Positions 5,526 through 32,139 of a DNA stretch of 32,139 nt are shown in pieces (within the stretch, counting starts at the first letter, position 1; each line of letters starts with the position of its first letter). The notes beneath the pieces were generated by a model that saw nothing but the letters and a program-made list of their open reading frames with translations, had not been told where the DNA came from and searched no databases. The stretch comes from Bacillota bacterium (GTDB lineage: Bacteria; Bacillota; Clostridia; Christensenellales; SZUA-584). The stretch lies in NCBI GenBank assembly GCA_023441905.1, contig JAEZNC010000106.1:1-32139 (forward strand), read 5' to 3'. The position numbers and the translations under genes were made by a program.

Positions 5526-5550
5526 ACGTTGCCATGGCAACGTATTTTTG
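5526..5550 (+). terminator. Terminator or attenuator hairpin upstream of the Moco operon
   Basis: Perfect 18-nt palindrome ACGTTGCCATGGCAACGT followed by ATTTTTGTT. It lies about 150 nt upstream of the ATG at 5698. Confidence 0.5.
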
Positions 5551-5697
5551 TTCGTTTTCGTGCTAAGATATCAGGAAAGACATGTGACATTTATGGGCAA
5601 TGCTTTAAACAAGTGCAGATTGTTAATGATTTGAGGACAAGGCTGAGTTTCGCAACGACGCAACGTGCAAATTATTATGACGGTAGGGTGAGACGAC

Positions 5698-6726: not shown

Positions 6727-6735
6727 GAGGATACG

Positions 6736-7218: not shown

Positions 7219-7251
7219 TTGATTGCGTTTCAATACGTAAGAAAGTTTATT

Positions 7252-8112: not shown

Positions 8113-8126
8113 TGGTATTAAGCAGC

Positions 8127-9847: not shown

Positions 9848-9850
9848 CCT

Positions 9851-10825
9851 ATGCAGGACCGTTTTGGCAGAAAAATTGACTATATGCGTATCTCGGTAAC
9901 AGACAGGTGCAATCTGCGCTGTGTTTACTGCATGCCAAAGCAGGGTGTGGAAAGCATTGCGCACGATGAGATATTGTCGTACGAAGAGATCGTCCGTGTG
10001 GTGCGTACGGCTGCGTCTCTCGGCATTGAGAAAATCAAGATCACGGGCGGTGAGCCGCTCGTGCGCAAAGGCGTGGCATCACTTGTCCGCATGGTCAAAG
10101 CGATACCCGGAATTCGGGCGGTCACGATGACGACAAACGGCGTGCTGTTTGCGCAATACGGAGAGGAACTGGCTGGTGCCGGTCTGGACGGTGTGAATTT
10201 CAGCCTTGATTCGCTTGACAAACAAATGTTTGAATCGCTGACCCGTTTTGATGCGCTGGAAAGCGTGACGGAGGGGATTCGATTGGCACTGCGGCTCGGG
10301 CTGAAGACGAAGCTCAATTGTGTACCGATGCAAACACAACAAAGCAGCGATCGGCTTAATATCGCGGCGCTTGCGAGAGATAACCCGCTTGATGTGAGAT
10401 TCATAGAAATGATGCCGATCGGCCTGGGTCGTGATTTTGAAACGGTGATCAATGATGATATCATGCAGGAGCTCGCAAACGCGTTTGGTCAGCCGATCCG
10501 CTCGAATGTCATCCATGGCAGCGGACCCGCTGTATATTATGATTTTCCAGGGTTCCGGGGCAGTATCGGCTTCATCAGTGCCCTGTCGCATTCGTTCTGC
10601 AGCAGCTGCAACAGAATACGGCTCACTGCGGACGGCGAACTCAAGCCATGCCTGTGCTATCAAGACGGACTGGCGTTAAAGCCGCTTTTAAGGAGCGGCA
10701 TGTCCGATGATCAATTGACAGGTGTGATGGCCGATGTGATTGCAGGCAAGCCAAAACAGCATGTGCTTGGCGAAGCGGCAAGCGGTGAGCAAGAAACAAG
10801 AAAGATGGTACAGATCGGTGGCTGA
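9851..10825 (+). CDS. moaA: GTP 3',8-cyclase MoaA (radical SAM)
   Basis: 324-aa ORF with the N-terminal radical-SAM cluster CNLRCVYC and the C-terminal auxiliary cluster region CSSCNRIRLTADGELKPCL. Confidence 0.93.
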   Translation: MQDRFGRKIDYMRISVTDRCNLRCVYCMPKQGVESIAHDEILSYEEIVRVVRTAASLGIEKIKITGGEPLVRKGVASLVRMVKAIPGIRAVTMTTNGVLFAQYGEELAGAGLDGVNFSLDSLDKQMFESLTRFDALESVTEGIRLALRLGLKTKLNCVPMQTQQSSDRLNIAALARDNPLDVRFIEMMPIGLGRDFETVINDDIMQELANAFGQPIRSNVIHGSGPAVYYDFPGFRGSIGFISALSHSFCSSCNRIRLTADGELKPCLCYQDGLALKPLLRSGMSDDQLTGVMADVIAGKPKQHVLGEAASGEQETRKMVQIGG

Positions 10826-10838
10826 TATAGGCAAAATC

Positions 10839-11255
10839 ATGGCCGTGTGCATCAGTGAACAGCGCGGCACAAAAAAGATCAATATCTCGTCAGGCGAGTT
10901 TGTAGAGAACTTTGGCATAAAAAACGACGCGCACGCGGGCGACTGGCACAGGCAGGTCAGCCTCCTGTGTAATGACCGCGTGCAGGAGTTTCGCAGCCGG
11001 GATGCCAATGTGGACGACGGCGCATTCGGAGAAAACCTGCTCGTTTCTGATATCGATTTCAAATCGCTGCCGTTGGGCACCCGCCTCAAATGCAAGGATG
11101 TGGTGCTGGAGATCACGCAGATTGGCAAGCAGTGCCACTCTCACTGCGAGATATATCATCAGGTGGGCGATTGCATCATGCCGCGTGAAGGCGTTTTTGC
11201 GAAGGTATTAACCGGCGGCATCATCAAGGTGGGGGATGAGCTTTATGTTGAGTAA
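10839..11255 (+). CDS. MOSC domain-containing protein
   Basis: The ORF-track start 10740 overlaps moaA and was trimmed to ATG 10839 (MAVCISEQRG). MOSC-type sequence is present: GENLLVSDIDF...LPLGTRL...VVLEITQIGKQCH. Confidence 0.75.
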   Translation: MAVCISEQRGTKKINISSGEFVENFGIKNDAHAGDWHRQVSLLCNDRVQEFRSRDANVDDGAFGENLLVSDIDFKSLPLGTRLKCKDVVLEITQIGKQCHSHCEIYHQVGDCIMPREGVFAKVLTGGIIKVGDELYVE

Positions 11256-11745
11256 AGGATATCGTGCGGCGGTCATTACCGCGAGCGACAAAGGCTGCGC
11301 GGGGCAGCGCGAAGACCTCAGCGGCAGATATTTGACGGATAGCCTTGAAAGTCTGGGCTGGCAGGTCGTCAGCTATAGCATGCTGCCTGACGATAAAGAA
11401 TCCATTTCTGCAGAATTGATAAGGCTCGCAGACGGCGGTTTGTGCGATCTGATACTGACAACTGGGGGAACGGGCCTCTCGCCGCGCGATGTGACGCCTG
11501 AGGCGACGCTGGCTGTTGCGGACAGGCTTGTGCCGGGCATCAGCGAGGCGATGCGCGCTTTCAGCATGACAGTCACGCACAGAGCGATGCTGAGCAGAGG
11601 CGTGTCGGTCATATGCGGCAAAACGCTGATAATCAACATGCCGGGCAGTAAAAAGGCCGTGCAGGAGTGCTTTGACGTGATTTCCGGCGTGCTCGCGCAC
11701 GCGGTTGAGACGCTGCGCGGGGAATCGGGAGACTGCGCGCGCTAG
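11245..11745 (+). CDS. MogA/MoaB-family molybdenum cofactor biosynthesis protein
   Basis: Carries the MoCF_biosynth signature LILTTGGTGLSPRDVTPEAT. ATG 11245 has better spacing from AAGGTGGGGG than ATG 11236. Confidence 0.85.
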   Translation: MLSKGYRAAVITASDKGCAGQREDLSGRYLTDSLESLGWQVVSYSMLPDDKESISAELIRLADGGLCDLILTTGGTGLSPRDVTPEATLAVADRLVPGISEAMRAFSMTVTHRAMLSRGVSVICGKTLIINMPGSKKAVQECFDVISGVLAHAVETLRGESGDCAR

Positions 11746-12443
11746 GCGTTCTCGTGGCCGGTAAAGCCGGTTAGCAGCTTAAATTTATTCTTATAAAATT
11801 CTATCAAGCCCTCGTTTTGCATACGGCTCAGTTCACGTGAAAGCGCGCTGCGGTCCACACAGAGGTAAGAAGCGAATTCTTCGCGATTGAACGGAAGCTG
11901 AATCTCGTTCGATTTCTTACGGCGGGCCTGCAGCGATAGATAGAGCATTATTCTGTCCCTCAGGCTTTTTTTTGAGAGGATATCAATTTTATAAAGCTGG
12001 CGCATATTTGCATTGGCCACAAGCTCCAATATGTTTTTGAGTATCAGGCAGCGGGCTCTGTCGGGTATCGTGCCGGGCTTGCTGATGAGATGGTAAGGAA
12101 ACGTGATGACCTCGGATTCGGTATCGCTTGTGATCACCAGCGGGCTGACCTGTGAAGGCGTACAGGCGACTTCAATACCGTAAAGCTTATTGGCCTTTAC
12201 CTTGCGTATCAAATTCGGATGGCCGTAGATGTCTTCTTTAAAAATGCTGAGTTCACCTTCGCTCACAGCCCCGATATAATCAATTTTCTCATCCATGTTG
12301 ATGAGTATTGCGCCCTTTTTAAAACGTTTGACTTGCACATGAAGAAGAGGAAGAAGCGTTTTTGCATCCTCAATCATCATCCCATCAAACAACTTTGTTT
12401 TTTGCAGACAACTTAAAACCGAATCCATATCACTAATCCGCAT
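11742..12443 (-). CDS. Crp/Fnr-family transcriptional regulator
   Basis: Has an N-terminal cNMP-binding-like beta-barrel region and a C-terminal HTH (REEFASYLCVDRSALSRELSRMQNEGLI). It is convergent with mogA and the stops share a CTAG. The start is uncertain (ATG 12443 or 12428). An extended -10 (TGTTATACT) lies just upstream. Confidence 0.8.
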   Translation of the reverse strand: MRISDMDSVLSCLQKTKLFDGMMIEDAKTLLPLLHVQVKRFKKGAILINMDEKIDYIGAVSEGELSIFKEDIYGHPNLIRKVKANKLYGIEVACTPSQVSPLVITSDTESEVITFPYHLISKPGTIPDRARCLILKNILELVANANMRQLYKIDILSKKSLRDRIMLYLSLQARRKKSNEIQLPFNREEFASYLCVDRSALSRELSRMQNEGLIEFYKNKFKLLTGFTGHENA

Positions 12444-12582
12444 GATTTTTATAATAGTATAACATGGAAAAGCGTCTTTGTATTCCGCAATGTAAAAATT
12501 CTGGAACAAGACTCAAGATGCCGGGAAAAGATTAAGAAAATACAGCTTATGCAGCGGAAAAGTGCTCGCTCGATCATCTGTG

Positions 12583-13282: not shown

Positions 13283-13372
13283 GGAGAGTTGGCTGAGTGG
13301 TCGAAGGCGCATGACTGGAAATCATGTTTACGGGTAACCGTAACTAGGGTTCAAATCCCTAACTCTCCGCCA
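13283..13372 (+). tRNA. tRNA-Ser (anticodon GGA), CCA encoded
   Basis: Hand-folded cloverleaf: acceptor GGAGAGT/ACTCTCC, anticodon stem CATGA/TCATG with loop CTGGAAA, long variable arm TACGG-GTAA-CCGTA, and T arm TAGGG-TTCAAAT-CCCTA. The discriminator is G, followed by CCA. Confidence 0.93.
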
Positions 13373-16367: not shown

Positions 16368-17150
16368 ATGAAGCTACTCAAAAACCGATTCGTCATTGGA
16401 GCCTTGTGCATCATCGCGGCGCTGCTGTTGAGCTTCCTTGCTTTACCGGCGTTACAGGGCGGCAACCAAAACGCGTATGTCAACGCCGTTCGCATGAAGC
16501 AGCCCGTACAGGCCGGAACCCAGCTCACCGCTGAAATGCTGGAAACGGTAAGCGTGCCGGAAAAGCTCGTGGAAGGCGGCGTCCGGGATATCCCATCGGC
16601 TGCCGGCAAGTACGCGGCCAATGACCTTTATGCCGGGGATTATCTGACTGCCGCCAAGCTCTCGGCCACGCTCGCAGAGCAGGATTCTTTTTCGGCTGGT
16701 ACACCAAAGGGAAAGATGGTGGTGTCGATCACGCTGCCGTCTTTGGCCTCCGGCGTTTCCGGCAGGTTGAAACCCGGCGACATCGTGACGGTCATGGCGC
16801 TGCCCAAAGGCTCGGTCAACCAATCGCTGGGTGTGGAGCCTGAAACGGACGGCGATGATCTGTCCGGCGCTGTCATCTATCCCGAATTGCAGTATATCGA
16901 GGTATGCATGGTGACGGCAAGCGATGGATCGGATGCCAGCGTCGCGGCCCGGCCTGACAAGGATGCAAAGAACAGCCTGCCCATGACAATATCCTTCTAC
17001 GCCACCGAGGAACAGGCTTTGAGATTGGCGGAGATTGAAAACCAGAGCATCATCCACCTTGCCTTTGTCGCCCGTGGAGAGGCAGCCTCGGAATTCCTGT
17101 CCGAAAGAGTGCTGTCCGAAGGTGTGACTGTGGGAACGGAGGTGGAATAA
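16368..17150 (+). CDS. cpaB: Flp pilus assembly protein CpaB/RcpC-like (SAF domain)
   Basis: ATG after TAGGAGGT. It has an N-terminal TM anchor (FVIGALCIIAALLLSFLAL) followed by a SAF-like segment (VRMKQPVQAGTQLTAEML). It is the first gene of the Tad operon. Confidence 0.75.
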   Translation: MKLLKNRFVIGALCIIAALLLSFLALPALQGGNQNAYVNAVRMKQPVQAGTQLTAEMLETVSVPEKLVEGGVRDIPSAAGKYAANDLYAGDYLTAAKLSATLAEQDSFSAGTPKGKMVVSITLPSLASGVSGRLKPGDIVTVMALPKGSVNQSLGVEPETDGDDLSGAVIYPELQYIEVCMVTASDGSDASVAARPDKDAKNSLPMTISFYATEEQALRLAEIENQSIIHLAFVARGEAASEFLSERVLSEGVTVGTEVE

Positions 17151-17151
17151 C

Positions 17152-17883
17152 ATGATCATCGCAATCTGGGGCCGTGATGGGATCGGCAAGAGTGCGCTCT
17201 GCGACACATTGGGCGCTCTGCTTGCAAAGCAAGGCGTTACGGCAATCCTTGATACCGACCTTACGCAGCCTACGCTGCCTGCTCGTTTGGGCGGCAAGAA
17301 GCTCGACGCGGATGCGTCGCTTGGCAAGGCCATAGGCATGAGCGCAATGGACGCAGCGCCATATCTGCACCAGCATCCGAAGCTCAAGAACCTGTTTTAT
17401 GCCGGACTGACCGACCGTGATGAATACCTCTCGTATGAGTTCGGCCTGGAGGTTGATGAGGCTGCGCAGATTTTTGTGGAACGGTGCGAAGAATTGGCCG
17501 ATACGGTCATCATTGATCTGTCAGGGCAACGCTGCGACCCTTTTCTGCCCGGTGCGCTCATCTATGCGGATAAAATAATAACCCTGTTCACGCCCGACGT
17601 TCAAGGCGTCTGTTGGTTCAACGGCATAAAGCATCTCTTAACCACCATGAACGCGCAGGGGCGCGTGCTGCCGGTTGCGGCAATGGCAGACCAACAGCAG
17701 CTTTCCGCCATCGAGAAGGCAATGGACGCGCGGTTCACCGCGGTGCTGCCCTATGTCCGGGAATTCAGGCAAATCCACGACACAGGTGCTTTCCCCACGG
17801 AAGGCGCGACGCCCGGCGCTGTGCGGTATCTGCGGGAGGCAAAAAAACTTTGCGGGCTGTTAAAGGGGGTTGATGAACAATGA
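17152..17883 (+). CDS. TadZ/CpaE-like ParA/MinD-superfamily ATPase with atypical Walker A
   Basis: 243-aa ORF starting 2 nt after the cpaB stop. The P-loop is IWGRDGIGKS, where the signature Lys of KGGxGK[ST] is not conserved. It occupies the position between cpaB and the secretion ATPase, as TadZ does. Confidence 0.6.
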   Translation: MIIAIWGRDGIGKSALCDTLGALLAKQGVTAILDTDLTQPTLPARLGGKKLDADASLGKAIGMSAMDAAPYLHQHPKLKNLFYAGLTDRDEYLSYEFGLEVDEAAQIFVERCEELADTVIIDLSGQRCDPFLPGALIYADKIITLFTPDVQGVCWFNGIKHLLTTMNAQGRVLPVAAMADQQQLSAIEKAMDARFTAVLPYVREFRQIHDTGAFPTEGATPGAVRYLREAKKLCGLLKGVDEQ

Positions 17884-19211
17884 GCCGAACATTCCGGGAA
17901 CTGGCTTACGAAAGGCAAAACACCGCTCCGCAGATCAAAGACGCATATGAAGCCATGTTGGAGCAGGTTCGCGTATCCATCTCTCAGAACCACGCGGAAA
18001 CACTCGCACAAAGCATTACGGAAAAGGACGCCTCGGATTCAGTAAGACGGCTCATCGGTGAGTACATCACCGAACACCATCTGCATATAGACGGCCTTTC
18101 CATGCACCAATTATCCGACAGGTTGTACGGCGATATGGCTGGCCTCGGATTCCTCGACCGGTACATTTCCGATCCCGACATCGAGGAAATCAACGGCAAC
18201 TCCTGGCGTGATATCGAAATAGTCACTCGCACTGGTTGGCGGAAGATACCCGAACGCTTCCTCTCGCCCAGGCACGCCGAGGACACCCTGCGCAAGATGG
18301 TACGGCTTGGCGGCCTGATATTGGACGCGACCAACCCGATTGTGGACAGCTACATCACGGAAGGCATCCGTGTGTCGGCTATGATCCCGCCCGTCGCTGA
18401 CAGGCGCAGCGGTGTGGTGTTCAGCCTGCGCCGCCAGCGCATGGCGCGGATCACGAAGGAACAGCTTGTCGAGTGGCACACAGCTACACCGGAAATGCTG
18501 GACTTCTTAGTATTGTGCATCAACCACGGCGTTTCAGTCGGGTTCGCGGGTAAAACGGGCAGCGGTAAAACGACGGACATCGCTTTCCTGCTGAACGCGG
18601 TAGATCGAAATAAGCGCATCTATACTATCGAGGAAACACGGGAGCTGGATTTGTTCAACGAGGATGGCGACGGGAAAGTGCAAAACCGCATTATCCACAC
18701 CTGCACGCGCCCGTCCGAGATGGAAAACGCCAATATCGATATGCATGACCTGCTGCGTAAGGCCATGCGCTATTCCCCGGACATCATCGCCGTCGCGGAA
18801 ATGCGCGGCGCGGAGGCAATGACCGCCCAGGAAGCAGCGCGCACAGGGCATACGGTCGTCACCAGTTTGCACGCATCGTCCGCCCGCAAAGCATACGGGC
18901 GCATGTTGAGCATGTGCCAGATGTCCAATACGCGCATCGCATCGGATATTCTGCTGGACTTCATCGTCGAAGCCTACCCGATCATGGTACACAAAAAGCA
19001 GCTCCCGGACGGCACGCGCCGCATCATGGAGATTGCCGAGGCTGTTGGAATACAAAACGGGACAGTGCAGACCAATACGCTCTATCGGTTCGACGGCGAA
19101 ACGGGCAAATATATCCGGGCGCACGGCATATCAGACGCGCTTGCGGATATTCTGCGCGAGAATAGCGCGGACAAAGCGGCGATTGCCCGCTTCAGGGAGG
19201 TGAAAACATGA
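17880..19211 (+). CDS. tadA: Tad/CpaF-type secretion ATPase (TadA)
   Basis: 443-aa ORF with an ATGA overlap to the upstream gene. Walker A (GKTGSGKTT), Walker B region (PDIIAVAEMRG) and His box (TGHTVVTSLHA) match the VirB11/CpaF family. Confidence 0.9.
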   Translation: MSRTFRELAYERQNTAPQIKDAYEAMLEQVRVSISQNHAETLAQSITEKDASDSVRRLIGEYITEHHLHIDGLSMHQLSDRLYGDMAGLGFLDRYISDPDIEEINGNSWRDIEIVTRTGWRKIPERFLSPRHAEDTLRKMVRLGGLILDATNPIVDSYITEGIRVSAMIPPVADRRSGVVFSLRRQRMARITKEQLVEWHTATPEMLDFLVLCINHGVSVGFAGKTGSGKTTDIAFLLNAVDRNKRIYTIEETRELDLFNEDGDGKVQNRIIHTCTRPSEMENANIDMHDLLRKAMRYSPDIIAVAEMRGAEAMTAQEAARTGHTVVTSLHASSARKAYGRMLSMCQMSNTRIASDILLDFIVEAYPIMVHKKQLPDGTRRIMEIAEAVGIQNGTVQTNTLYRFDGETGKYIRAHGISDALADILRENSADKAAIARFREVKT

Positions 19212-20134
19212 CCGTACAGATACTATGTGCCCTGCTTATCATAGCGGGGCTGTTCCTGCTGTTCAGAATCCGCCCCTCGGATATGACGGGCAGGCTTTCA
19301 AAGCCATTCGCACAGTACAGAGAAAGAAAACAGCGTATACGCAGGATTACCGGAAAACCGAAAGGAAAGATGGCGGCGACGGTGGACAGCGCGAAGGAAA
19401 TGCTTACGGCGGCGGGCATGGGCGAACAGGTCGATGCCTACAAGTGGGCGGCTGTCATACTGGCGGTTCTCGGTATGCTGTTCGGACTATCGTTGAACAA
19501 TTTTCTTGCGGCGCTGGTGCTGGCGGCAGGGCTTGGTTGCGCGCCGCTGATCGTGATCCGCATCCGCACCGGCGACTATGTTCGGAATTTGAACGAGAAG
19601 CTGGAAAACGCAATGGGCGCGGTCACGAACGGCTATATCGCGTCGGGCGATATCATCGGCGCTGTGGAAAACAGTCTGCGCCTGTTGCCGTCTCCGCTGG
19701 ACGGCGTATTCCGCCATTTTTTCAATGAAACGCAGTTGATCGACTCCGACATCGTGAAAGCCCTGCGCCGGATGCGCGAACGGATCAACAACCGGTACTG
19801 GCGGGATTGGTGCGACGTGCTGGTGCAATGCCAGCGCGATAAGCAGTTGCGGTATGCCTTACCCGGCATTGTGAGCAGACTTGGCGAAATGCGGCGTATC
19901 CAGATGGAAACCGACACGACGATCCGCAAGCAGATTGGCGATTATATCATCACGGTTATGCTTGTTTTGGGTGCTATTCCGATGATGGGCGCTATGATGC
20001 CCGATTGGTACATTATGCTTACCACATCGGTGGCAGGCAAAATTACGCTGGCCGTTGTGCTGGCCGCCGTTCTTGCAACCGCCGTATGGGTGGCGCGCCT
20101 ATATCGCCCGGTGGAAGGCGGTGAACAGCAATGA
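19208..20134 (+). CDS. tadB: TadB-like type II secretion system F-family membrane protein
   Basis: 308-aa polytopic membrane protein with ATGA coupling to tadA. Its position and topology are typical of TadB. Confidence 0.7.
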   Translation: MTVQILCALLIIAGLFLLFRIRPSDMTGRLSKPFAQYRERKQRIRRITGKPKGKMAATVDSAKEMLTAAGMGEQVDAYKWAAVILAVLGMLFGLSLNNFLAALVLAAGLGCAPLIVIRIRTGDYVRNLNEKLENAMGAVTNGYIASGDIIGAVENSLRLLPSPLDGVFRHFFNETQLIDSDIVKALRRMRERINNRYWRDWCDVLVQCQRDKQLRYALPGIVSRLGEMRRIQMETDTTIRKQIGDYIITVMLVLGAIPMMGAMMPDWYIMLTTSVAGKITLAVVLAAVLATAVWVARLYRPVEGGEQQ

Positions 20135-21009
20135 CGTTGATCCTTTACTCCATATCTGGTTTCCTGTTCGCCATCGGCCTATACCGCGTCGCACAGGCGG
20201 CACTTAGCCTGCCCAACGGCAAGGCTACGAAGGCGGTGCGCAACATCCACGGCAGGCGTGAGCTGACGCAGCGGTTTCAGGACGCGCTGTTGCCGTTGGC
20301 AAGGGTAATTTCCAAAATATTTCCGATGAGCGAATACAAAAAAAGGCGCTTGGAGGCCGACTTTTCGAGGCTGCATATTTTACAGGCGGCGGAGGATTAT
20401 GTTTCACAGGCGAAAACGCGCTCATTGCTGCTGACGCTCATCGGCCTGATCTTCATCCCGTTCGGTATTCCGTGGTTAGCTTTGATTACCGCCGTCATCG
20501 CCGTTCTTGCCTATTTCCAGAGTATGCAGAGCATCCGCAAGCGCGTGGAAGTGCAGAACCGCGAGATCGAAGCGGAGATGCCCCGGCTGACGGAAACGCT
20601 TTTATACACGCTACGGGAAAACCGCGACCTGCTCACTTTCTTTGAAAGGTACAGGAAAGTGGCGGGCAAGGCGCTGGGTGCGGAGCTTGACCGGCTGATA
20701 ACCGACATGAAAACGGGCAATCAAGAAGCGGCGCTTCGAAGGATGGACGCGCGGCTGGGTCTTCCGTCGTTTGCGGCGCTCTGTGCGGTGCTGTGCGGCG
20801 TATACCAAGGCGTAGACCAACATTTAAGTCTACTTGTTTTAGAGCAGGACATGAGGGCAAAAGAGCGTGAAATGCTCCGAAGGCTTATGGAAAAGCGCCC
20901 CGGCAGGATCAAAGCGGCCTCGTTCATCCTGACGATACTCCTGATATTCCTCTTTATGATTCCCCTCGTACTGCTGATCATCAATAACCTACAGGCCGTG
21001 GGCTTCTAA
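20131..21009 (+). CDS. tadC: TadC-like type II secretion system F-family membrane protein
   Basis: 292-aa polytopic membrane protein with ATGA coupling to tadB. It is the second T2SS-F paralogue, as in Tad loci. Confidence 0.7.
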   Translation: MTLILYSISGFLFAIGLYRVAQAALSLPNGKATKAVRNIHGRRELTQRFQDALLPLARVISKIFPMSEYKKRRLEADFSRLHILQAAEDYVSQAKTRSLLLTLIGLIFIPFGIPWLALITAVIAVLAYFQSMQSIRKRVEVQNREIEAEMPRLTETLLYTLRENRDLLTFFERYRKVAGKALGAELDRLITDMKTGNQEAALRRMDARLGLPSFAALCAVLCGVYQGVDQHLSLLVLEQDMRAKEREMLRRLMEKRPGRIKAASFILTILLIFLFMIPLVLLIINNLQAVGF

Positions 21010-22314: not shown

Positions 22315-25233
22315 ATGAAAAAGAAGAAAAAGATTGTAGTCATTCTGGCCGCGATCTTGGTTGTGCTTACGTCGCTTGTGCTGTTTTCTTCTACGGCGCT
22401 GGCCGCCGTTAATATCTCATCAAGAAATGTGACCAATATGTTCGATTACAACGGGGGCAGCGGATGGGCGGATTTGAAAACCCCTGAGCATTATGTTGTA
22501 GGCAGCTCCCCCGAACAGGTTGCCTATTGCCTCCAACATAAGAACGACAGCCCTTCCGGTTCCTCGTATAACGAAACAGATATTTTAGACAGCTATTCAG
22601 CGCGCGTTCGGACGGGATTGAGGATCATTTTTGAAAACGGCTACCCCTACGCAACAGGCGGCCTGACGGCGACGGAAGCACGGTACGCAACCGCCAATGC
22701 CGTGCGCTTCTGGCTGTCTGAAAATGGCGACAGCGGACAATACAACTTCACCAATCTTGGTTCGTATACCGACGCGCAGCTTCGCACCGCAGCCGCCAGC
22801 GGGCAGATCGGCAGCAAGATCAGAGCCAATTCAGGATATACCGATGTGCTGCAATTCTCCGTTGAATTGCTTATTAAAGCTCGGGCGCAAGCCCTGATGA
22901 CGCACGACATTGGACTGTCCACCCCTTCTATGTATATCAGCGGCAGCTACTTCGTCGGCACTGCCAGCGTGTCGCTCACCAACATGAACGGTGGATATTC
23001 GCTGGATACCACCGCGCTGCCATCCGGCTCCAGCGTGGCCGGTTACACGGGACAATCCGGGGATGTATTGACGGTGAGGATTCCCTTAAACGAAGCAAAC
23101 GCCAACCGAACCTTTTCCATATCGGCAACGGGCAGGGACAATAGGACGCGAAGTAATATGTTTGCCTACGCGCCTTCCAGCAGTAGCCTTCAACGCGTTA
23201 TCGTAGCTAAAAACGCGATATACAATGAAGCAAAGACCGTCTCGGTGTCCTTTGGAACGCCGCAAATCTACGCCGATCTTGTGGTCACGGCTTTTTATTC
23301 CGACGCTTCCGCATATAAGGCGGGTGACGCGATTACAATCACCGCTACTATCGCCAATCAGGGCCTTCGCTCTGCGGGCGGGTTTTATGTAGCATTAGGC
23401 TCACCTGACCTTTCGACACAGAGCAAATATGTTTCCTCACTGGCAGTAGGCGGCTCCACCAACGTCACCTTCAGCTATACCGCAGGCCAATACGCATCGG
23501 ATAAAACCATCAATATCACGGCAACCGCGGATTCTACCGGTGCTGTGGCCGAAAGCAACGAAAGCAACAACACTCGTTCGGCATCCTTCAAGGTGCTGGC
23601 ATATGTCCCTCCGCTGCCCGACCTTACAGTAACTTCCCTGACCAGCAACAAGGCCGAATACAAGGCGGACGAAACCATAACGATCACCGCCGCAATCCAA
23701 AACCAGGGAGTCGGCGCGGCAGGCGGTTTTTATGTGGCATTGGCATCCTCCGATCTTTCGACACAGAGCAAATATGTTTCCTCACTGGCAGTAGGCGGCT
23801 CCACCAACGTCACCTTTAGTTATACCGCAGGCCAGTACGCATCGGATAAAACCATCAATATCACGGCCACCGCGGATTCTACCGGCGCTGTGGCTGAAAG
23901 CAACGAAAGCAACAACACTCGTTCAGCATCCTTCAAGGTGCTGGCATATGTCCCTCCGCTGCCCGATCTGACTATTACCTCGCTTGCCGGAGACAAGACG
24001 CTTTATGAAGCCGGAGAAACGATAGTAATAACGGCTTCGGTTAAAAACATTGGTGAAAGTGCTTCGCCCGCAACAACGGTTCGGCTTACCGTCCCGGCCA
24101 TTGGAACATTCTCAGCAAATGTAGCGACGCTGAACGCGGGAGCAAGCCAGGCAGTGACGTTCTCCTTCACAGCGCCTACATCACTCAGCCCACAAACCGT
24201 TTCCATGACTGCATTCGCAGACCCCAACAATCTAATTGCAGAGAGCAATGAAAACAACAATACTCGCTCCGCGACAGTGTCCGTCAACGCATTGCGGCCG
24301 GATATTGAAATCGTGGATTCGACCATCATGGATTGGTATGCCGGTAAGGATGTTACAGTTTCGGCTACTGTCCGAAACCGAACTGACCAGCCTGTTCCTT
24401 CCGTAAGTATCCGGCTGACGATTGGCGGCGCGTCCTATACGGAACAAATCCCGGTTCCCGGAAGCGGAGACAACCTTGTGGTATTCAGAATCACCGTTCC
24501 GATTGCGAGAAACTACGCCGTCAAGCTCATCGCAGACCCGGACGGCGTGCTGAACGAAACGGACGAAGGAAATAACTCTTTGAGCAAAAACATTCAGGTT
24601 CTGACCATACCGGCTTGCATTGCGGCAGACCCCGATAACAGCGCGATGGAACAACGCCATAAAGTGTATGGGCTGACCAGCCTTCCCACGCTCACCTCAT
24701 CCGCCTACCACACATGGCAGGAGGTGCGTCTTGAGGATGGTAATTACATCACAAAAAACTTTTATGCGAGACTATCTACCACGTTTTCTATTTTACCGGA
24801 CAGCCGTATCGCCTATGCCGATAAGCCGCGCCAGATGGAATCAGGCTTCGGATTCAGCGTTCAATGCACGACCACCTTAGCCACCAACTATGACAGACCC
24901 GGCAAACTCGTTGGGGCGCAGATGGTTTGGATGCGCTGTCCCGAAAGTGCCTACGGCCAGCTATCGGAATGGCAAACCGTGCGGGATGCTCTGGAAGTCA
25001 AAACGGGCGCAGCCGGTGGTACGACAGCCACATGGCAGCTTGCCGTCAATCCTTGGTCAACAACAGGAAGTCGGCTGCATTACACTCCGCTTTGGTTCCC
25101 GGATGGCAACTATACGGTATGGGCGCAGGCGTTTTACGCATGGTCGCCTGTCGGCCAGCTCTACGAGCATAAAACCGACGCGCTGACCATATCGGGCGAT
25201 ATGTACGACCGGATCACGACAATAAGGCGGTGA
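22315..25233 (+). CDS. Large secreted surface protein with four CARDB repeats (candidate pilus-associated adhesin)
   Basis: 972-aa ORF after AAAGGAGG. It has a Sec-type signal peptide (MKKKKKIVVILAAILVVLTSLVLFSSTALA|A). Four CARDB-like units, each starting PD(L/I).(V/I) and ending ESNE.NN(T/S), span about 23272-24603. The N-terminal 300 aa contains a VAYCLQH motif. The C-terminal 210 aa was not recognised. There is no LPXTG motif and no C-terminal TM segment. Confidence 0.75.
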   Translation: MKKKKKIVVILAAILVVLTSLVLFSSTALAAVNISSRNVTNMFDYNGGSGWADLKTPEHYVVGSSPEQVAYCLQHKNDSPSGSSYNETDILDSYSARVRTGLRIIFENGYPYATGGLTATEARYATANAVRFWLSENGDSGQYNFTNLGSYTDAQLRTAAASGQIGSKIRANSGYTDVLQFSVELLIKARAQALMTHDIGLSTPSMYISGSYFVGTASVSLTNMNGGYSLDTTALPSGSSVAGYTGQSGDVLTVRIPLNEANANRTFSISATGRDNRTRSNMFAYAPSSSSLQRVIVAKNAIYNEAKTVSVSFGTPQIYADLVVTAFYSDASAYKAGDAITITATIANQGLRSAGGFYVALGSPDLSTQSKYVSSLAVGGSTNVTFSYTAGQYASDKTINITATADSTGAVAESNESNNTRSASFKVLAYVPPLPDLTVTSLTSNKAEYKADETITITAAIQNQGVGAAGGFYVALASSDLSTQSKYVSSLAVGGSTNVTFSYTAGQYASDKTINITATADSTGAVAESNESNNTRSASFKVLAYVPPLPDLTITSLAGDKTLYEAGETIVITASVKNIGESASPATTVRLTVPAIGTFSANVATLNAGASQAVTFSFTAPTSLSPQTVSMTAFADPNNLIAESNENNNTRSATVSVNALRPDIEIVDSTIMDWYAGKDVTVSATVRNRTDQPVPSVSIRLTIGGASYTEQIPVPGSGDNLVVFRITVPIARNYAVKLIADPDGVLNETDEGNNSLSKNIQVLTIPACIAADPDNSAMEQRHKVYGLTSLPTLTSSAYHTWQEVRLEDGNYITKNFYARLSTTFSILPDSRIAYADKPRQMESGFGFSVQCTTTLATNYDRPGKLVGAQMVWMRCPESAYGQLSEWQTVRDALEVKTGAAGGTTATWQLAVNPWSTTGSRLHYTPLWFPDGNYTVWAQAFYAWSPVGQLYEHKTDALTISGDMYDRITTIRR
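23376..23972 (+). repeat. Near-identical tandem duplication inside the CARDB gene (345-nt period)
   Basis: Blocks at about 23376-23627 and 23721-23972. From TTTCGACACAGAGC onward I count 8 differences in about 215 nt, and all 8 are synonymous third-position changes. Confidence 0.85.
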
Positions 25234-27302: not shown

Positions 27303-27992
27303 ATGGAATTGAATATCCGTGCTATGACGCCCGAGGAAACCAAGTACAGCTATAGCCAGAGCCAGCAGCTTAGGATGCAGTGCGGCAGCATCGGACATCT
27401 GCGCGGGGATTTCGGTACCAAGGGCTACGAGTTTTATACAACCTGGGACGACCATAATCAACGGCTAAAAACAGAAGCCTTCAAATCAGAGCTTGATGAG
27501 GTTATCAATGCTCTACGCTCCGATGGGTGCGGACTCTTGAAAGACCGCTACGCCATGGGCGAGTTCAAACAGCGATATCCCGAAAGCGCCTTTATGGGCA
27601 ATTACACCACCGAATACGGGTTTCGGGTGGATACCCAGGAGTACGCCTACCTGCTGCGCTGCAATCCGGTTCGGGGCGATTATAATTTCTACTGTTTTTG
27701 CTATCAGGCAAAATGGCTGGACAGAAACATGGAGAAGGCCCGGCAGGGCATCCGCTTTATTGACAGCGGATACAAGGAGCTTTTCCGCGTCCCGGACGGC
27801 GGCAAGATCGTGATAACTGCCGCCTGGGGCGAAAAGATGGAACGCGCCTGCCGGTATATCGACGACACGCATGTGGAGGTAGGAAAAGAGCTGTACCACA
27901 TCTGCCAGTTTGCCGAAATCATGGAGAAAAACGGCGCGTCATATAAGCCGTTTGAGAAAAACCAGCCGAAAAATAAAGATTACGAACGATAG
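27303..27992 (+). CDS. Conjugative-element accessory protein, function unknown
   Basis: ATG 27303 lies about 7 nt after GGAGAGGTG (the track start is GTG 27294). The 229-aa product shows no catalytic motif that I recognise. Confidence 0.5.
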   Translation: MELNIRAMTPEETKYSYSQSQQLRMQCGSIGHLRGDFGTKGYEFYTTWDDHNQRLKTEAFKSELDEVINALRSDGCGLLKDRYAMGEFKQRYPESAFMGNYTTEYGFRVDTQEYAYLLRCNPVRGDYNFYCFCYQAKWLDRNMEKARQGIRFIDSGYKELFRVPDGGKIVITAAWGEKMERACRYIDDTHVEVGKELYHICQFAEIMEKNGASYKPFEKNQPKNKDYER

Positions 27993-28004
27993 GAGGTGCC
28001 GCAG

Positions 28005-31000
28005 ATGGCGCGAAAATATGAGCTGATTACCGAGCTGTATCAACAGACACTGGGGGAAATCACATCCTCGCAAGGGGCGTGGCGGGCCTTCCTGCGTAGC
28101 GCCTGCTGCAACTATAAATGCCGGTTTGACGAGCAGGTGTTGATTTACGCGCAACGCCCGGACGCCAGGGCTGTGCTGGAGCTGGATGATTGGAACAAAA
28201 AGCTCGGACGTTGGGTCAACCGTGGCGCGGCCGGTATCGCCGTATTCGATGACATTCACACGGGCTGCTCCCGGCTCAAGCACTATTTCGATATTTCCGA
28301 TACCCACGCCAGCCGCTTCTCCCGCCCGGTGCCCATATGGGAGATGCAGGAACGGTATGAGGATGAGGTCATCGAGGCGCTGGAAGCCTCCTTCGGCGCG
28401 GTACAGGACAACGGTTCTTTGGAAAGTACGCTTCTGCAAATCGTCTCCAACGTTGTGGAGGACAATGAGCAGGACTATTTCCGTGAGCTGATGTACTGCC
28501 GTGAGAACAGCTTGCTGGAGGAATTGGACGAATTTAATGTGGAGGTGTATTTCAGGCAGGCGCTGGAAGCCTCCGTGTCATATATGTTGCTGGAGCGGTG
28601 TCTGGGCGGCGCTGCCGACCAGTATGCCGCGCTTGTGGATTTTTCGCCTATACTGAACTTCAATACCCGCGAAACTGTCAATGCCCTTGGCATCGCCACC
28701 AGCGATATGGCCGAAATGGTGCTCAAGGAAATTGCCCTGACTGTCCGCAATATCCAGAAACGGGAACGCCAGCAAAATCGCACAGTTGATAAACCGCAGG
28801 AGGCCGGTTATCCTGTAAATGAACAGGAAACAAATGAGCCGGAAAGGAGTTTTGCATATGAATCTGACATACCGCAAAGAGGGCGACTACAATCTGCCCA
28901 ACCTGCTGCCCCCGCAGGAGACGGAGGTACACCTTGGGAAATACGCATTGCTGCGCCGGAAGTTCCTGAAGGAGAACCGCCGCGTGACCTACACCAACCT
29001 TCTGACATCGGGCAAGCTCAACAGCCACCTGATGGAGATCGAGCGGACGGCGCTTACGAGGCTGGAGCAGATGGTGCCGCAGATGGCGAAGGCCGAGGGC
29101 GTGACGGAGGAACTGAAAGCCACCGATCAGATGAAATGGGTGGGCCTGATGAACAACATCCGTCACTCGGCGGAGGAAGCGATACTGAGCGAACTGATCT
29201 ACAACTAAATACCGAAAGCCCCGAAGAAGCGGACAGCGACGAGCTGCCCGCTTTTTTAGATGACACGCTCATCATGGGCGTCATCGCCAACAAAGACGAT
29301 GAACTCAAATACAAAAAACAGCAGATCGCGCTGTTCTTCTCCATTCATCCCGACGAGAGCGAACGCGCGGAATATATCAAATCCGCCTATCCCGACCGCT
29401 ATACGGAAATCCTGGTGGGCGCAAAGCGCGTCGGCTTTAAGCCCCAGGAGGACGGTTTGCTCATGTGGGAGGGCGCATACCTCTCCCGCAGCAGCGAGGC
29501 CGTTTTTTCGTGGCAGACCGTTGCCGCGTGGACGGCGCAGCTCATAGAGAAAAAGGAATACCATATCAACAGGGACATTAAGGCGCTCAAAACTCAGGCA
29601 GGCCAGCAAATGTCCCTTTTTGATTTATCCCCGGTGGAGAGCGACACGCCATATGAGCAGGTATCTCTTGCGAGAGCGTTCGCTATCCCGCAGAGCGTTA
29701 TTGACGAAGCCCTGTGCCTGGGCGGGAACGAGCCGTATTGTCTGGAGCGCATATGCGCGTGGTTCTTGAAGGATTATCCACTGGAGCAAAACGCGGCGTT
29801 TCTGTGCGAGGAATATGGCACCTCCGGCAAGGGCTTTTTCTCCGGCGTCAGCCCGTATGCCCTCTGGTTCGATGGGGCCGGTATCCGTGTCGGTATGGGC
29901 CGGGCGGCGCAAAGCGCCACGACCCTTATTACCTGGGAGGCCGCCGCGAAACGAATCCGTGAGCTTTTGGACACGGGGCGCTATGTCCCTCAGAGCGTAC
30001 TGGATAACGCGCCGGAGAACGAGCGCAAGGAACTGGCCGACCATCTCTGGTATACGGTACAGGATTTTTCGCGGGAAGCCCACGACGAGAACCTTATCCC
30101 TACGATCCTTGAAATATATAATGGGCACGGCGGTTTCCCGGACAACACCGCGCAAATCCGCGAGCTGCTAAAGGACGGCGAAACGGTATCCACGCTCATC
30201 ACCGAGGTGGAAGCCTTTGCCGTGCGCTATGCTGAGAATCCCGACCTGATGCGCTTCCGGTTCCGCCGCCATGACGAAATACTCACCGGCTTACACGGCC
30301 TTTTGCGCCCGCATATCGAGTTTTCTGCCAGCCCGGATTTCTCCCTTGAACCGAAACAGTTTATTACCAACGATGAAATCGACCGACTGCTCACCGGCGG
30401 CAGCAATGTCCAGCACAGTAAGTTCCGTATCTACTCGTACTATTTGGAAGGACACACCCCTAAAGAAAGAGCCGACTTCCTGAAGCACGAATATGGTTCA
30501 GGCGGCGGCGGGCGGCTGGGCTTTGACGAATGGCACGATTCCAAGGGCATCACCTACAAGCGGGAAAACGCCCAGTTTGTTCCCTACGATACTATCCTTC
30601 TTAAATGGCCGCAGGTGGAAAAGCGCGTCAGCGAGCTGATCCGGCAGGGCAAATATATGTCGGAAAAAGAACTGGCGTATATCCCAACGTATGAAAAGCA
30701 TGAGCTGGCGCGGGAGATTCAGGGCTTTTTCTCAGGGCTTCCCCAGGAAACCCCACGCCCCTATCCGCATGGCTTTGATTTCTATGAAGCTGTGAAGCTG
30801 ATCGAGCCGCAGCTTGGCGATCCGGCGCGGGTGGAAGAAATCTATCAAATGATGCTGCCGGTATGGGAAAGCACAACCCAGGGCGACCGGTATTATGACT
30901 TTCAAGAACGGGTTTTTGAGCATATGACAGCGTACCGCAATGGTACGTTTTCTTTATTTGGCGAGAAAAAAGGGCCAGCGGCTATCCCGGCTCAAGCAGA

Positions 31001-32139
31001 GGAAACGCCCGCGCCCCCTCCGGCACCGGCAAAGGAATTACCAGCCGAAACAGAAACGCCGGACTATGATGCGCTGGCCGGGCGGCTCAATGACTTCTAT
31101 AAGGAATTTGGCCCTTATGATTACGTTGATGCCATGGAACTCGGTGAAACCGAGGGAGATGTTATCGCCCGGCTGGAAGAGCAGTTACAGCAGCCGGAGC
31201 AGCTTGCCCGAATACTGGAGGATTTGGAGCTGTCCCGGGATGCGTTAGACCCCGAGGATGAGCTTGCCATTGATCTTGAGCTTCTTATGGAGGACTTGCA
31301 GGCCCTTTCTGATGGTGAGCCGGAGGCACCCGTACAGGAAGCCTCACCCATATGGGAAAAGGTTGAAGGCGGCGAAGTCGCTCGCGTGCGGATCGACCTG
31401 ATGCCCGAACCGCTGGAATTACCCGCCGAAAAAGAAAATGTGCTGGCTCCGCCCAAGCCCAAGCGGGAGCGCGTGCTATTTTCCACACTCCACCCGGAGA
31501 TTCCCGCCGAGCAGTGGCATAATTTCCGCATCACCGACCCGCAGCTTGGCGTGGGCACCCCGAGCGAGAAGTTCGCGGCCAATGCCGCAGCGATCCGTAC
31601 TTTGAAGCAGATTGAAAATGAGAACAGGCTGGCAACGCCGGAGGAACAGGAAGTCCTTTCCCGCTATGTCGGCTGGGGCGGTCTGGCGGATTGCTTTGAT
31701 GATCGCCACGGCAAGTATCTGGAACTGAAAAGCCTCTTGGATGAGGACGAATATGCCGCCGCAAGAGCCAGCAGCCTGACGGCGTTTTACACGCCGCCCG
31801 TCGTTGTCGGAGCTATATACCGGGCGCTTTCGCAAATGGGTTTTGAGCGCGGCAACATTCTGGAACCCGCCTGCGGCGTGGGCAACTTCATAGGCATGAT
31901 CCCGGACAGCATGGCGGACAGCAAAGCCTACGGCGTGGAGATCGACAGCATATCGGGCCGTATCGCCCGGCAGCTTTACCAGAACAGCAGCATTGCCGTG
32001 GACGGCTTTGAAAAGGTGGATATGCCCGACAGCTTCTTTGATGTAGTCGTGGGCAACGTGCCCTTTGGGGATTTCAAGGTGCTGGACAGGCGGTATGACA
32101 AGCACAAATGGCTGATACACGATTACTTTTTCGGCAAGG
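28005..32139 (+). CDS. Giant polyvalent protein, 5' part only (ArdC-N-like N-terminus, disordered linker, LPD-type modules, N6-adenine DNA methyltransferase domain begins); continues beyond the window
   Basis: It is absent from the ORF track because it has no stop in the window. ATG 28005 lies 6 nt after TAGGAGGTG. I translated frame 0 by hand from 28005 to 32138 and found no stop codon. The MTase motifs I (NILEPACGVGNF) and IV (VVGNVPFG) appear near the end. An FLKHEYGSGGGG module lies at about 30480. Confidence 0.8.
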   Translation, partial: MARKYELITELYQQTLGEITSSQGAWRAFLRSACCNYKCRFDEQVLIYAQRPDARAVLELDDWNKKLGRWVNRGAAGIAVFDDIHTGCSRLKHYFDISDTHASRFSRPVPIWEMQERYEDEVIEALEASFGAVQDNGSLESTLLQIVSNVVEDNEQDYFRELMYCRENSLLEELDEFNVEVYFRQALEASVSYMLLERCLGGAADQYAALVDFSPILNFNTRETVNALGIATSDMAEMVLKEIALTVRNIQKRERQQNRTVDKPQEAGYPVNEQETNEPERSFAYESDIPQRGRLQSAQPAAPAGDGGTPWEIRIAAPEVPEGEPPRDLHQPSDIGQAQQPPDGDRADGAYEAGADGAADGEGRGRDGGTESHRSDEMGGPDEQHPSLGGGSDTERTDLQLNTESPEEADSDELPAFLDDTLIMGVIANKDDELKYKKQQIALFFSIHPDESERAEYIKSAYPDRYTEILVGAKRVGFKPQEDGLLMWEGAYLSRSSEAVFSWQTVAAWTAQLIEKKEYHINRDIKALKTQAGQQMSLFDLSPVESDTPYEQVSLARAFAIPQSVIDEALCLGGNEPYCLERICAWFLKDYPLEQNAAFLCEEYGTSGKGFFSGVSPYALWFDGAGIRVGMGRAAQSATTLITWEAAAKRIRELLDTGRYVPQSVLDNAPENERKELADHLWYTVQDFSREAHDENLIPTILEIYNGHGGFPDNTAQIRELLKDGETVSTLITEVEAFAVRYAENPDLMRFRFRRHDEILTGLHGLLRPHIEFSASPDFSLEPKQFITNDEIDRLLTGGSNVQHSKFRIYSYYLEGHTPKERADFLKHEYGSGGGGRLGFDEWHDSKGITYKRENAQFVPYDTILLKWPQVEKRVSELIRQGKYMSEKELAYIPTYEKHELAREIQGFFSGLPQETPRPYPHGFDFYEAVKLIEPQLGDPARVEEIYQMMLPVWESTTQGDRYYDFQERVFEHMTAYRNGTFSLFGEKKGPAAIPAQAEETPAPPPAPAKELPAETETPDYDALAGRLNDFYKEFGPYDYVDAMELGETEGDVIARLEEQLQQPEQLARILEDLELSRDALDPEDELAIDLELLMEDLQALSDGEPEAPVQEASPIWEKVEGGEVARVRIDLMPEPLELPAEKENVLAPPKPKRERVLFSTLHPEIPAEQWHNFRITDPQLGVGTPSEKFAANAAAIRTLKQIENENRLATPEEQEVLSRYVGWGGLADCFDDRHGKYLELKSLLDEDEYAAARASSLTAFYTPPVVVGAIYRALSQMGFERGNILEPACGVGNFIGMIPDSMADSKAYGVEIDSISGRIARQLYQNSSIAVDGFEKVDMPDSFFDVVVGNVPFGDFKVLDRRYDKHKWLIHDYFFGK
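28858..29208 (+). CDS. tnpV: TnpV-family protein, nested in the +1 frame of the giant ORF
   Basis: 116-aa ORF. ATG 28858 lies 8 nt after AAAGGAG (28843-28849). The N-terminus MNLTYRKEGDYNLPNL and the C-terminal GVTEELKA.DQM.WVG.MNNIR...E.IYN match the TnpV family as I recall it. The third-codon-position G/C bias follows this frame. Confidence 0.75.
   Translation: MNLTYRKEGDYNLPNLLPPQETEVHLGKYALLRRKFLKENRRVTYTNLLTSGKLNSHLMEIERTALTRLEQMVPQMAKAEGVTEELKATDQMKWVGLMNNIRHSAEEAILSELIYN

Follow-up and report, generated by a model that had tools for sequence, protein, structure and literature searches.

A tnpV gene nested out of frame in the linker region of a giant DarB-like gene: evidence for dual coding in mobile elements of Bacillota

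The window analyzed here is the whole 32,139-nt stretch of contig JAEZNC010000106.1 (assembly GCA_023441905.1), from a Bacillota bacterium of the order Christensenellales. Its forward strand carries the 5' part of a giant open reading frame (ORF; 28005..32139, denoted frame 0), encoding a polyvalent DarB-like methyltransferase/helicase protein and cut by the window end, and, wholly within this ORF but in the +1 frame, the tnpV gene (28858..29208), encoding a 116-aa protein of the TnpV family. An earlier sequence-only reading of this DNA proposed, as the first of three options, that the giant protein uses the off-frame of tnpV as a disordered linker. Here we document, by sequence comparison, the anatomy of this gene pair, its conservation and the signatures of selection on both reading frames. 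The conserved nesting, together with a specific avoidance of stop codons, agrees with that proposal and very probably reflects genuine dual coding, that is, an independently initiated TnpV encoded inside the disordered linker of a DarB-like polyvalent protein.

The nested tnpV gene and its frame-0 reading

From the ATG at 28005, preceded at a distance of 8 nt by a Shine-Dalgarno (SD) sequence AGGAGG (27991..27996), frame 0 contains no stop codon up to base 32138 (1378 codons); full-length relatives of the giant protein comprise 2422-2559 aa. The tnpV gene has an SD of its own, AAAGGAG (28843..28849), which is located inside a conserved GAAAGGAG and separated by 8 nt from the ATG at 28858, and it ends with TAA at 29206-29208. 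Both SD sequences were read directly from the window. The tnpV start is shifted by one base relative to that of the giant ORF ((28858-28005) mod 3 = 1), so that tnpV occupies the +1 frame. The downstream part of frame 0 has no SD of its own, the next in-frame ATG, at 29274, lacking one. All coordinates given in the sequence-only reading are correct.

The product of tnpV is a full-length match to the Pfam family TnpV (PF14198; E=3.5e-43, 146.5 bits, cut-off 27), with residues 4-114 aligned to positions 1-111 of the 111-position profile. It also matches PHROG 24764 (E=6.9e-36), which has no assigned function, and 4125 homologues were found; searches of PADLOC and NCBIfam yielded no match. The AlphaFold2 (AF2) model of TnpV, with a mean predicted local distance difference test score (pLDDT) of 82.7, consists of a beta-hairpin plus helices. 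It has no Foldseek match with E<2 in PDB or BFVD, and this comparison provides no structural support for an Xis-like fold of TnpV.

Across the overlap, a frame-0 codon combines the last base of a tnpV codon with the first two bases of the tnpV codon that follows. Read in this frame, the segment over tnpV (28842..29222, ERSFAY...DLQLNTES, ~126 aa) is a low-complexity sequence rich in G, D, E, P, A and R. Within the overlap, the residues G, D, E, P, A, R, Q, S and T account for 85%, and the hydrophobic share is 12%, compared with 36% in the N-terminal domain of the giant protein. GC content by codon position in the tnpV frame is 0.57/0.33/0.83, compared with a third-position GC of 0.67-0.69 in the flanking parts of frame 0. 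Thus, as stated in the sequence-only reading, the G/C third-position bias tracks the tnpV frame. The tryptic peptides predicted from the frame-0 linker in the window include DGGTESHR and SDEMGGPDEQHPSLGGGSDTER. A scan of the overlap for promoters and terminators, which produced weak consensus matches only and no terminator, was uninformative.

Judged from the window alone, the openness of frame 0 is suggestive only. Synonymous resampling of tnpV with the codon usage of the window yields a mean of 5.0 frame-0 stops and a probability of a stop-free frame of 0.0028, and the third frame over tnpV contains 13 stops. Depending on the null model, however, the probability ranges from 0.003 to 0.18, so that the case that ~117 stop-free codons are unlikely by chance is weaker than had been claimed for a single sequence, and the argument rests on comparison with relatives.

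Conservation of the nested arrangement

A first search, with the opening 520 frame-0 residues as the query, returned 1050 proteins; by design, it finds open frames only. Nearly all of the top 120 proteins cover 100% of the query at 48-64% identity, and the linker segment ERSF...DLQL contains neither gaps nor stops in 19 aligned homologues (alignment A1). In the same alignment, the frame-0 residues encoded by the SD of tnpV, Glu280-Arg281-Ser282, are conserved, the first two invariant and Ser282 nearly so.

The second, unbiased search relied on the alignment of the N-terminal domain alone (262 aa, alignment A2), with one genome per species. It detected 554 relatives, of which the best 80 loci were inspected; these come from Oscillospiraceae, Lachnospiraceae, Christensenella and others, with N-domain identities of 52-94%. 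The tnpV gene is present in all 77 loci that reach past the N-domain, always in relative frame +1 and 60-90 nt past that domain, and is 50-97% identical to the tnpV of the window. Its start, SD and stop are conserved, and the length of TnpV among the loci is 114-123 aa. Frame 0 is open throughout tnpV in 74 of the 77 loci; frame-0 stops, for which the sequence-only reading had proposed to search the homologues, are not routine.

The three exceptions look like decayed copies or sequencing errors. In L006 and L056, the stops lie within the N-domain itself, and in L062, a change near the 3' end of tnpV (~5198) puts a frame-0 stop three codons from the end of tnpV and lengthens tnpV to 123 aa. In a further locus, L001 (4854-5255), the tnpV stop codon is lost and TnpV is lengthened to 133 aa, with frame 0 still open. 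L001 and L062 are natural variants that separate the fates of the two frames.

The +1 nesting with an open frame 0 was also found in ten plasmid-borne relatives, from Monoglobus, Streptococcus suis, Cohnella, Clostridium perfringens, C. botulinum, Listeria, Virgibacillus, Enterococcus, Bacillus cereus and Subdoligranulum. The relative from Monoglobus pectinilyticus has an open frame of 2559 codons; the S. suis plasmid encodes a "DEAD/DEAH box helicase" of 2422 aa, and the TnpV-like ORF nested in it is 33% identical to that of the window; and Cohnella herbarum shows the same +1 nesting. The N-domains of the other seven (C. perfringens, C. botulinum, Listeria monocytogenes, Virgibacillus, Enterococcus wangshanyuanii, B. 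cereus and Subdoligranulum) are only 21-31% identical. In all seven, the +1 ORF at the equivalent position matches a hidden Markov model (HMM) built from the TnpV set of this analysis (E from 1.6e-6 to 2e-26), and the giant frame is open across it. SD-like purine runs precede the nested start in the distant AT-rich relatives too.

The number of frame-0 stops expected per gene over the loci and the distant plasmids is 3.4-14.7, and approximately none were observed. For five AT-rich relatives (tnpV GC content of 33-42%), 9.4-14.7 stops were expected and 0 observed, and 0 of 5000 resamples were stop-free for each. Standalone tnpV genes served as controls: the equivalent frame contains 4 stops in the Tn4451-like copy of Campylobacter coli, 3 in that of Streptococcus gallolyticus plasmid pSGG1 and 14 in that of a Salmonella IncHI2 plasmid. 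Openness therefore belongs to the nested context and not to the TnpV sequence as such. Taken across these relatives, the open frame 0 is far beyond chance expectation. In the C. coli plasmid pCOS502 (714-2941), the large serine recombinase gene shares its last 4 nt (2597-2600) with tnpV, so that TnpV has a translational link to a gene upstream even where it stands alone.

Selection on the two reading frames

The only route to a frame-0 stop over tnpV is a third-position T before AA, AG or GA. Over 69 distinct tnpV sequences, T occupies 1 of the 1648 third positions in these contexts, compared with 660 of 3993 (16.5%) in safe contexts of the same genes and with 25-28% in AA/AG/GA contexts of the flanking domains. 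Per 117 codons, the equivalent off-frame has 6.5-7.7 stops in the flanks but 0.01 in tnpV. Third bases at the stop-critical sites do vary, among C, G and A, so the missing T reflects avoidance rather than an absence of change.

Selection was further assessed with simple Nei-Gojobori proportions of synonymous (pS) and nonsynonymous (pN) differences, at high divergence, rather than with dedicated overlapping-gene models. The tnpV frame has pS=0.59 and pN=0.29, the overlap read in frame 0 has pS=0.30 and pN=0.37, and the flanks in frame 0 have pS=0.76 and pN=0.30-0.46. With pN below pS in the tnpV frame and above it in frame 0, the amino acid sequence of TnpV is the main target of purifying selection. 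The pS of tnpV is below that of the flanks in every divergence bin (in the lower bins, for example, 0.39 vs 0.58 and 0.50 vs 0.71), and the third-base entropy at four-fold sites of conserved columns is 1.08 bits in tnpV vs 1.48 and 1.58 bits in the flanks (Mann-Whitney P=3e-5). The hot spots among these synonymous sites correspond to the frame-0 residues R-D-G (in GRDGGTES) and to the Asp of DLQL. Frame 0 itself is under strict selection for openness and biased to G/C-first codons that give a hydrophilic linker; selection on a few frame-0 residues beyond openness is possible, the signal being only suggestive.

The synonymous constraint in tnpV could, in principle, stem from an element acting at the nucleotide level, such as an RNA structure, an oriT-like sequence or a recombination site, instead of frame-0 translation. 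Several third positions are indeed near-invariant (Leu CTG, 35/35, and a G-V-T block), and streptococcal mobilizable elements that carry a serine recombinase and tnpV, including those of S. suis, integrate site-specifically into "snf2" of Tn5252-type integrative and conjugative elements (ICEs) (PMC9815147, PMC5357655). The main signal, however, is confined to contexts in which a T would create a stop, a pattern that neither a structural nor a binding element would generate; predictions for the region around the tnpV start reveal no consensus structure; and the 11-bp repeat TTTTGCGGACA, reported at the ends of tnpV cargoes in S. suis snf2, is found neither at nor near tnpV in the S. suis plasmid locus or in the window. 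We therefore consider it very unlikely that a nucleotide-level element explains the constraint, although one could act as a minor extra layer beside dual coding.

Another possibility is that only frame 0 is functional and that the TnpV-like ORF is an untranslated relic, or a shadow of selection on the linker. Some annotations (S. suis, C. perfringens and C. botulinum) give the giant ORF alone, as do Prodigal-style gene callers on long contigs. Within the overlap, however, pN is below pS in the tnpV frame and above it in frame 0, and TnpV retains its start, SD, length and stop across the loci. Moreover, the same protein family occurs as free-standing genes, and it is TnpV that folds confidently in the AF2 model, whereas the frame-0 reading is of low complexity. 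Taken together, these observations make a frame-0-only origin of the pattern highly improbable.

Internal initiation versus frameshifting

The spacer between the N-domain and the ribosome-binding site of tnpV (28791..28841, frame-0 aa 263-279) is A-rich, variable and unstructured; alignments A1 and A4 show little conservation there, and RNA folding predicts no consensus structure for it. Embedded in this variable A-rich surrounding, GAAAGGAG is conserved in nearly all of 76 loci at a near-constant distance of ~8 nt from the tnpV ATG, with the adjacent bases varying. Between SD and ATG, the bases differ among the loci (TTTTGCAT, GCGCTGAT, ACCCCAC, CGACGATG and others), and no heptamer or CUU-U-type motif is common to them; the frame-0 codons around the SD, inspected in 45 of the 68 distinct upstream regions, likewise contain no conserved slippery site. 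RNAalifold analysis of 35 loci around the tnpV start found 0 conserved pairs, and the single-sequence fold (z=-1.86) leaves the SD unpaired. We also considered an RNA structure that would sequester the tnpV SD and couple its translation with the passage of frame-0 ribosomes, and rejected this candidate on the same two grounds. The conserved combination of SD and ATG appears to be an internal initiation site and not a frameshift site.

The sequence-only reading had offered, as a third possibility, ribosomal frameshifting from frame 0 into tnpV, which would yield an ArdC-N::TnpV fusion. In a mechanism resembling the SD-stimulated shift of prfB, a programmed +1 frameshift would occur near the SD-like GAAAGGAG. 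An internal SD-like sequence just before the frame change is compatible with this scheme, as are the T-run that follows it in the window (AGT TTT GCA) and a tnpV frame that is open for more than 30 codons upstream in 24 of the 68 distinct upstream regions. In 36 of the 68, however, a stop closes the tnpV frame within 15 codons upstream of the ATG; the unconserved bases between SD and ATG leave no room for a shared slippery site; and the features that are kept, the ATG and its distance of ~8 nt from the SD, are those of a start signal. In addition, no frame-0 stop follows the putative shift site, unlike in prfB, standalone tnpV genes are translated alone, and no conserved stimulatory RNA structure is predicted. 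A frameshift is, accordingly, hardly credible, and this part of the sequence-only reading does not hold.

Least probable of all, to the point of being negligible, is the explanation that only tnpV and separate flanking genes are functional, with the continuity of frame 0 produced by an assembly indel, a recent fusion or pseudogenization and with a downstream start, for example, at the existing in-frame ATG 29274: the NCBI Prokaryotic Genome Annotation Pipeline (PGAP) does split the Monoglobus relative in this way (TnpV plus a truncated "SNF2-related protein"), and the within-gene codon permutation gives P=0.18 for the window sequence, but an open frame 0 is shared by 74 of 77 loci that were assembled independently and by the ten distant plasmids, the avoidance of third-position T (1/1648) is context-specific, five AT-rich relatives contain zero stops where 9-15 were expected, ATG 29274 lacks an SD, and the N-domain frame has no stop codon to end on. 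The comparative data contradict this explanation, systematic indels at two equivalent positions in all assemblies being implausible, and the recent fusion of three genes suggested earlier is incompatible with an arrangement that spans Clostridia and Bacilli, down to 21% N-domain identity.

A model of dual coding

Under dual coding, the same-strand nested pair would be an ancient feature of a conjugative element, with a single mRNA region translated in both frames. Ribosomes that initiate at ATG 28005 would make the ArdC-like N-domain and keep frame 0 across tnpV, a passage that would yield a disordered tether of ~125 aa rich in G, D, E, P, A and R, before entering the methyltransferase and SNF2-helicase modules of the DarB-like anti-restriction protein. 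TnpV, helical and 116 aa long, would come from separate ribosomes that initiate in the +1 frame at the internal GAAAGGAG-N8-ATG (28843-28860). Selection acts mainly on the residues of TnpV and, in frame 0, excludes stops, favors a G/C-rich first position and possibly holds a few residues. With no start of its own for the body of the giant protein, a frame-0 stop inside tnpV would truncate that protein, which would explain the avoidance signature.

Several points weigh against this model. The sample consists of the best 80 of 554 genome hits, and shared ancestry among the loci means that fewer independent tests underlie the data than the raw counts suggest. When the codons of tnpV itself are permuted among synonymous positions, the mean number of frame-0 stops is 1.4 and the P value is the 0.18 mentioned above, although this procedure retains the existing depletion of third-position T in tnpV. 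The reduced synonymous variation in tnpV could arise partly from stronger codon bias rather than from selection on frame-0 residues. Finally, we infer the production of both proteins from sequence, and the functional part of the explanation draws on genomic context, TnpV having no structural relative in PDB or BFVD.

As for function, the only other habitat of TnpV is MOBQ-type mobilizable elements, and for this reason we suggest, with low confidence, that TnpV might be an accessory factor in conjugative DNA processing, transfer or establishment. The link between TnpV and the anti-restriction and establishment machinery of conjugative elements provides a concrete hypothesis for its function.

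Anatomy of the giant protein

The N-terminal domain of the giant protein (28005..28790, aa 1-262) has 67 invariant columns in alignment A2 and is probably an ArdC-like ssDNA-binding domain. Residues 3-115 are 39.8% identical in tblastn to Listeria plasmid proteins, which PGAP names "ArdC-like ssDNA-binding domain-containing protein"; this likeness is the one positive line of evidence for the assignment. No match was found in Pfam, even at E<=10 across 10 members, in NCBIfam, or, by sequence search, in PDB. The AF2 model of the domain, which has a low-confidence core at residues 58-109, is only weakly similar to ArdC (6I89) in Foldseek (E=4.9, prob 0.21, root-mean-square deviation of 5.2 over 112 columns). 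The ArdC-N-like domain recognized in the sequence-only reading thus persists by virtue of its likeness to the Listeria proteins, and profile searches do not recover it.

Downstream of tnpV, a conserved module begins with ELPAFLDD... (29241..29570; columns 409-600 of alignment A1), without an SD or start of its own. The segment between the tnpV stop and this module differs in length among the homologues, as seen from the indel pattern in A1. Further downstream, the region 31521..32138, which is cut by the window end, is predicted to be a DarB-like N6-adenine DNA methyltransferase (MTase): it matches PHROG 10089, "DarB-like antirestriction" (E=5.6e-69), and PADLOC MTase_II (E=4e-11) and is below the cut-off for Pfam N6_Mtase (E=0.0016). 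The MTase module expected in this part from the sequence-only reading is therefore recovered, whereas the LPD families expected alongside it have no match within the window. In the full-length relatives from Monoglobus (L081, 2559 aa) and S. suis (L082, 2422 aa), N6_Mtase/Eco57I domains are accompanied by SNF2/ResIII/Helicase_C domains; the window holds the MTase part of the giant protein, and the helicase part falls past its end. No peptidase domain was identified in the portion of the protein encoded in the window. Altogether, the giant ORF appears to encode a polyvalent methylase-helicase protein in the sense of Iyer et al. (PMC5512222).

Four proteins of alignment A1 (P0011, P0044, P0054 and P0084) have the N-domain and the linker in common but differ in their C-terminal modules, which include HATPase_c, SNF2, Toprim and a TraG/VirD4 coupling protein. 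The difference arises either from shuffling of the body beyond the tnpV linker or from metagenome assemblies that are chimeric or frameshifted.

Comparison with known overlapping genes and related elements

Viruses offer well-documented examples of long, out-of-frame gene pairs with complete nesting; in bacteria, the known cases are few, short and often disputed. One of them is comS (46 aa), nested in srfAB of Bacillus subtilis. Another is gndA (36 aa), within gnd of Escherichia coli (PMC11230408). The tnpV pair resembles both in that a small gene lies out of frame, on the same strand, wholly inside a large ORF, with an internal ribosome-binding site of its own, and the host frame reads through. 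However, comS and gndA are short, lineage-restricted and overprinted on conserved enzyme domains, whereas tnpV encodes 116 aa, belongs to a widespread Pfam family and is the more constrained of the two frames, with a low-complexity linker as the host frame; unlike them, this pair is conserved across two classes of Bacillota. With 116 codons, a recognized family and selection signatures on both frames, it would be a rare, deeply conserved case of bacterial dual coding. The pair recurs in elements of Listeria, Enterococcus, S. suis, C. perfringens, C. botulinum, Bacillus and many gut Clostridia, and this recurrence, together with the selection signatures, makes it a natural and experimentally tractable system for the study of dual coding and overprinting in bacteria.

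Among phages, embedded genes include Rz1 inside Rz of lambda and, in phiX174, B inside A and E inside D. Viral overprinting has been reviewed (PMC8227390). The phage cases share with the tnpV pair full same-strand nesting in an alternative frame, with one frame ordered and the other compositionally biased, and reduced synonymous variation. In the phages, both products are functional, as those of the tnpV pair very probably are. The phage genes reside in small, size-constrained genomes, whereas the tnpV pair is found in large conjugative elements and plasmids without obvious compaction pressure, and its host gene, unlike those of the phages, encodes a multidomain protein of 2400-2600 aa.

TnpV is otherwise known from mobilizable transposons of the Tn4451/Tn4453 type and from MOBQ2 integrative and mobilizable elements (IMEs) (PMC3158075, PMC12084326); an Xis-like role in excision has been postulated for the TnpV of Tn4451. 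These proteins belong to the same family as the nested TnpV, that of the window being 42-44% identical to the copies from C. coli, S. gallolyticus and the Salmonella plasmid, and in either setting TnpV is always encoded on elements that move by conjugation or mobilization. In contrast to the nested genes, tnpV of the Tn4451 type is free-standing, often has 4 nt in common with the end of the large serine recombinase gene and has 3-14 stops in the off-frame.

The giant protein shares with the polyvalent proteins, including DarB of phage P1 (PMC5512222), its large multidomain architecture, a probable ArdC-like N-domain, an N6-MTase and an SNF2 helicase, the location on a conjugative element and a YodL-domain neighbor. 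Polyvalent proteins have been hypothesized to be delivered into the recipient and processed into domains (PMC5512222). That study does not mention TnpV, overlapping frames, frameshifts or linkers; here, the inter-domain linker is the alternative frame of another gene. SD-stimulated frameshifting (+1 in prfB; -1 in dnaX and the IS3 family; PMC5009743) has in common with the tnpV locus an internal SD-like sequence ahead of a second coding frame; tnpV differs in lacking a conserved slippery sequence, a zero-frame stop and a stimulatory structure, and in having an ATG at start-codon distance. We found no description of the tnpV overlap in the accessible (non-subscription) literature on TnpV, PF14198, polyvalent proteins, or nested and overlapping genes of conjugative elements.

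Origin of the gene pair

In viral overprinting, the ordered and more constrained frame is considered the older one. By this criterion, the ordered and more constrained frame of TnpV suggests that tnpV predates the frame-0 linker and that two genes became fused by read-through across a third. In a rough neighbor-joining tree of TnpV (~110 residues, midpoint root), the three standalone TnpVs branch from among the nested sequences, which also make up every one of the deepest branches. This topology points the other way for the extant copies, in that the free-standing ones might have escaped from nested ones.

We put forward tentatively, and lean somewhat against, the proposition that the ArdC-like N-domain and the methylase-helicase body are joined exclusively via the -1 frame of tnpV, as a single ancient invention across Bacillota. 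In a stronger version, the whole TnpV family may have arisen or diversified inside the linker, with the free-standing copies of the Tn4451 type being escapes. The nesting itself may also be functional: TnpV, made beside the nascent giant protein, may serve as its chaperone or secretion adaptor, or the traffic of frame-0 ribosomes may tune the output of TnpV.

Annotation and genomic context

Annotation pipelines resolve the overlap arbitrarily and, as a result, one of the two proteins is missing from most records. In the Monoglobus locus (NZ_OY725736.1, 8151-15830), TnpV is annotated, the giant ORF is started ~1000 codons late as an "SNF2-related protein", and the stretches 8151-9012 and 9346-11261 have no listed gene. 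In the S. suis locus (NZ_CP135064.1, 8121-15389), the record lists the giant gene but lacks the nested tnpV; PGAP also gives the giant gene alone in C. perfringens, C. botulinum, Virgibacillus, Enterococcus and B. cereus. Studies of the "snf2" genes of ICEs, of the IMEs inserting there and of the distribution of TnpV accordingly rest on incomplete maps. The "snf2" target of the streptococcal mobilizable elements mentioned above is the same giant gene that already holds a nested tnpV.

Some of the inspected loci (L010, L013, L042, L049 and L074) come from metagenome-assembled genomes labeled Alphaproteobacteria, Selenomonadaceae, Eggerthellaceae or Flexilinea. Such labels on an element of the Bacillota type suggest either binning contamination or cross-phylum transfer.

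The first 12.5 kb of the window are chromosomal, with xanthine-dehydrogenase-type and molybdenum-cofactor genes; this part (90-12509) also contains amidohydrolase genes, a molybdate-type ABC transporter and a Crp-like regulator. Next come a tRNA-Ser (GGA) gene at 13283-13372 and, from ~13.4 kb, the integrated conjugative element, which encodes ParA/ParB, Tad-type pilus proteins, an adhesin with CARDB and thioester domains, a YodL-domain protein and the DarB-like giant protein. The window thus crosses the left boundary of the element, in the layout usual for elements integrated at tRNA genes. An integrase, which was not seen within the window, may be located at the far end of the element. The Tad/Flp-type pilus cluster (16368-21009) comprises a CpaB/RcpC-SAF protein, a ParA-like ATPase, a CpaF-type T2SSE ATPase and two unassigned ORFs, and a 972-aa surface protein with four CARDB repeats and a thioester domain is encoded at 22315-25233. 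In this part of the element, the pilus and the surface protein form an adhesion module rather than a classical VirB4-type set.

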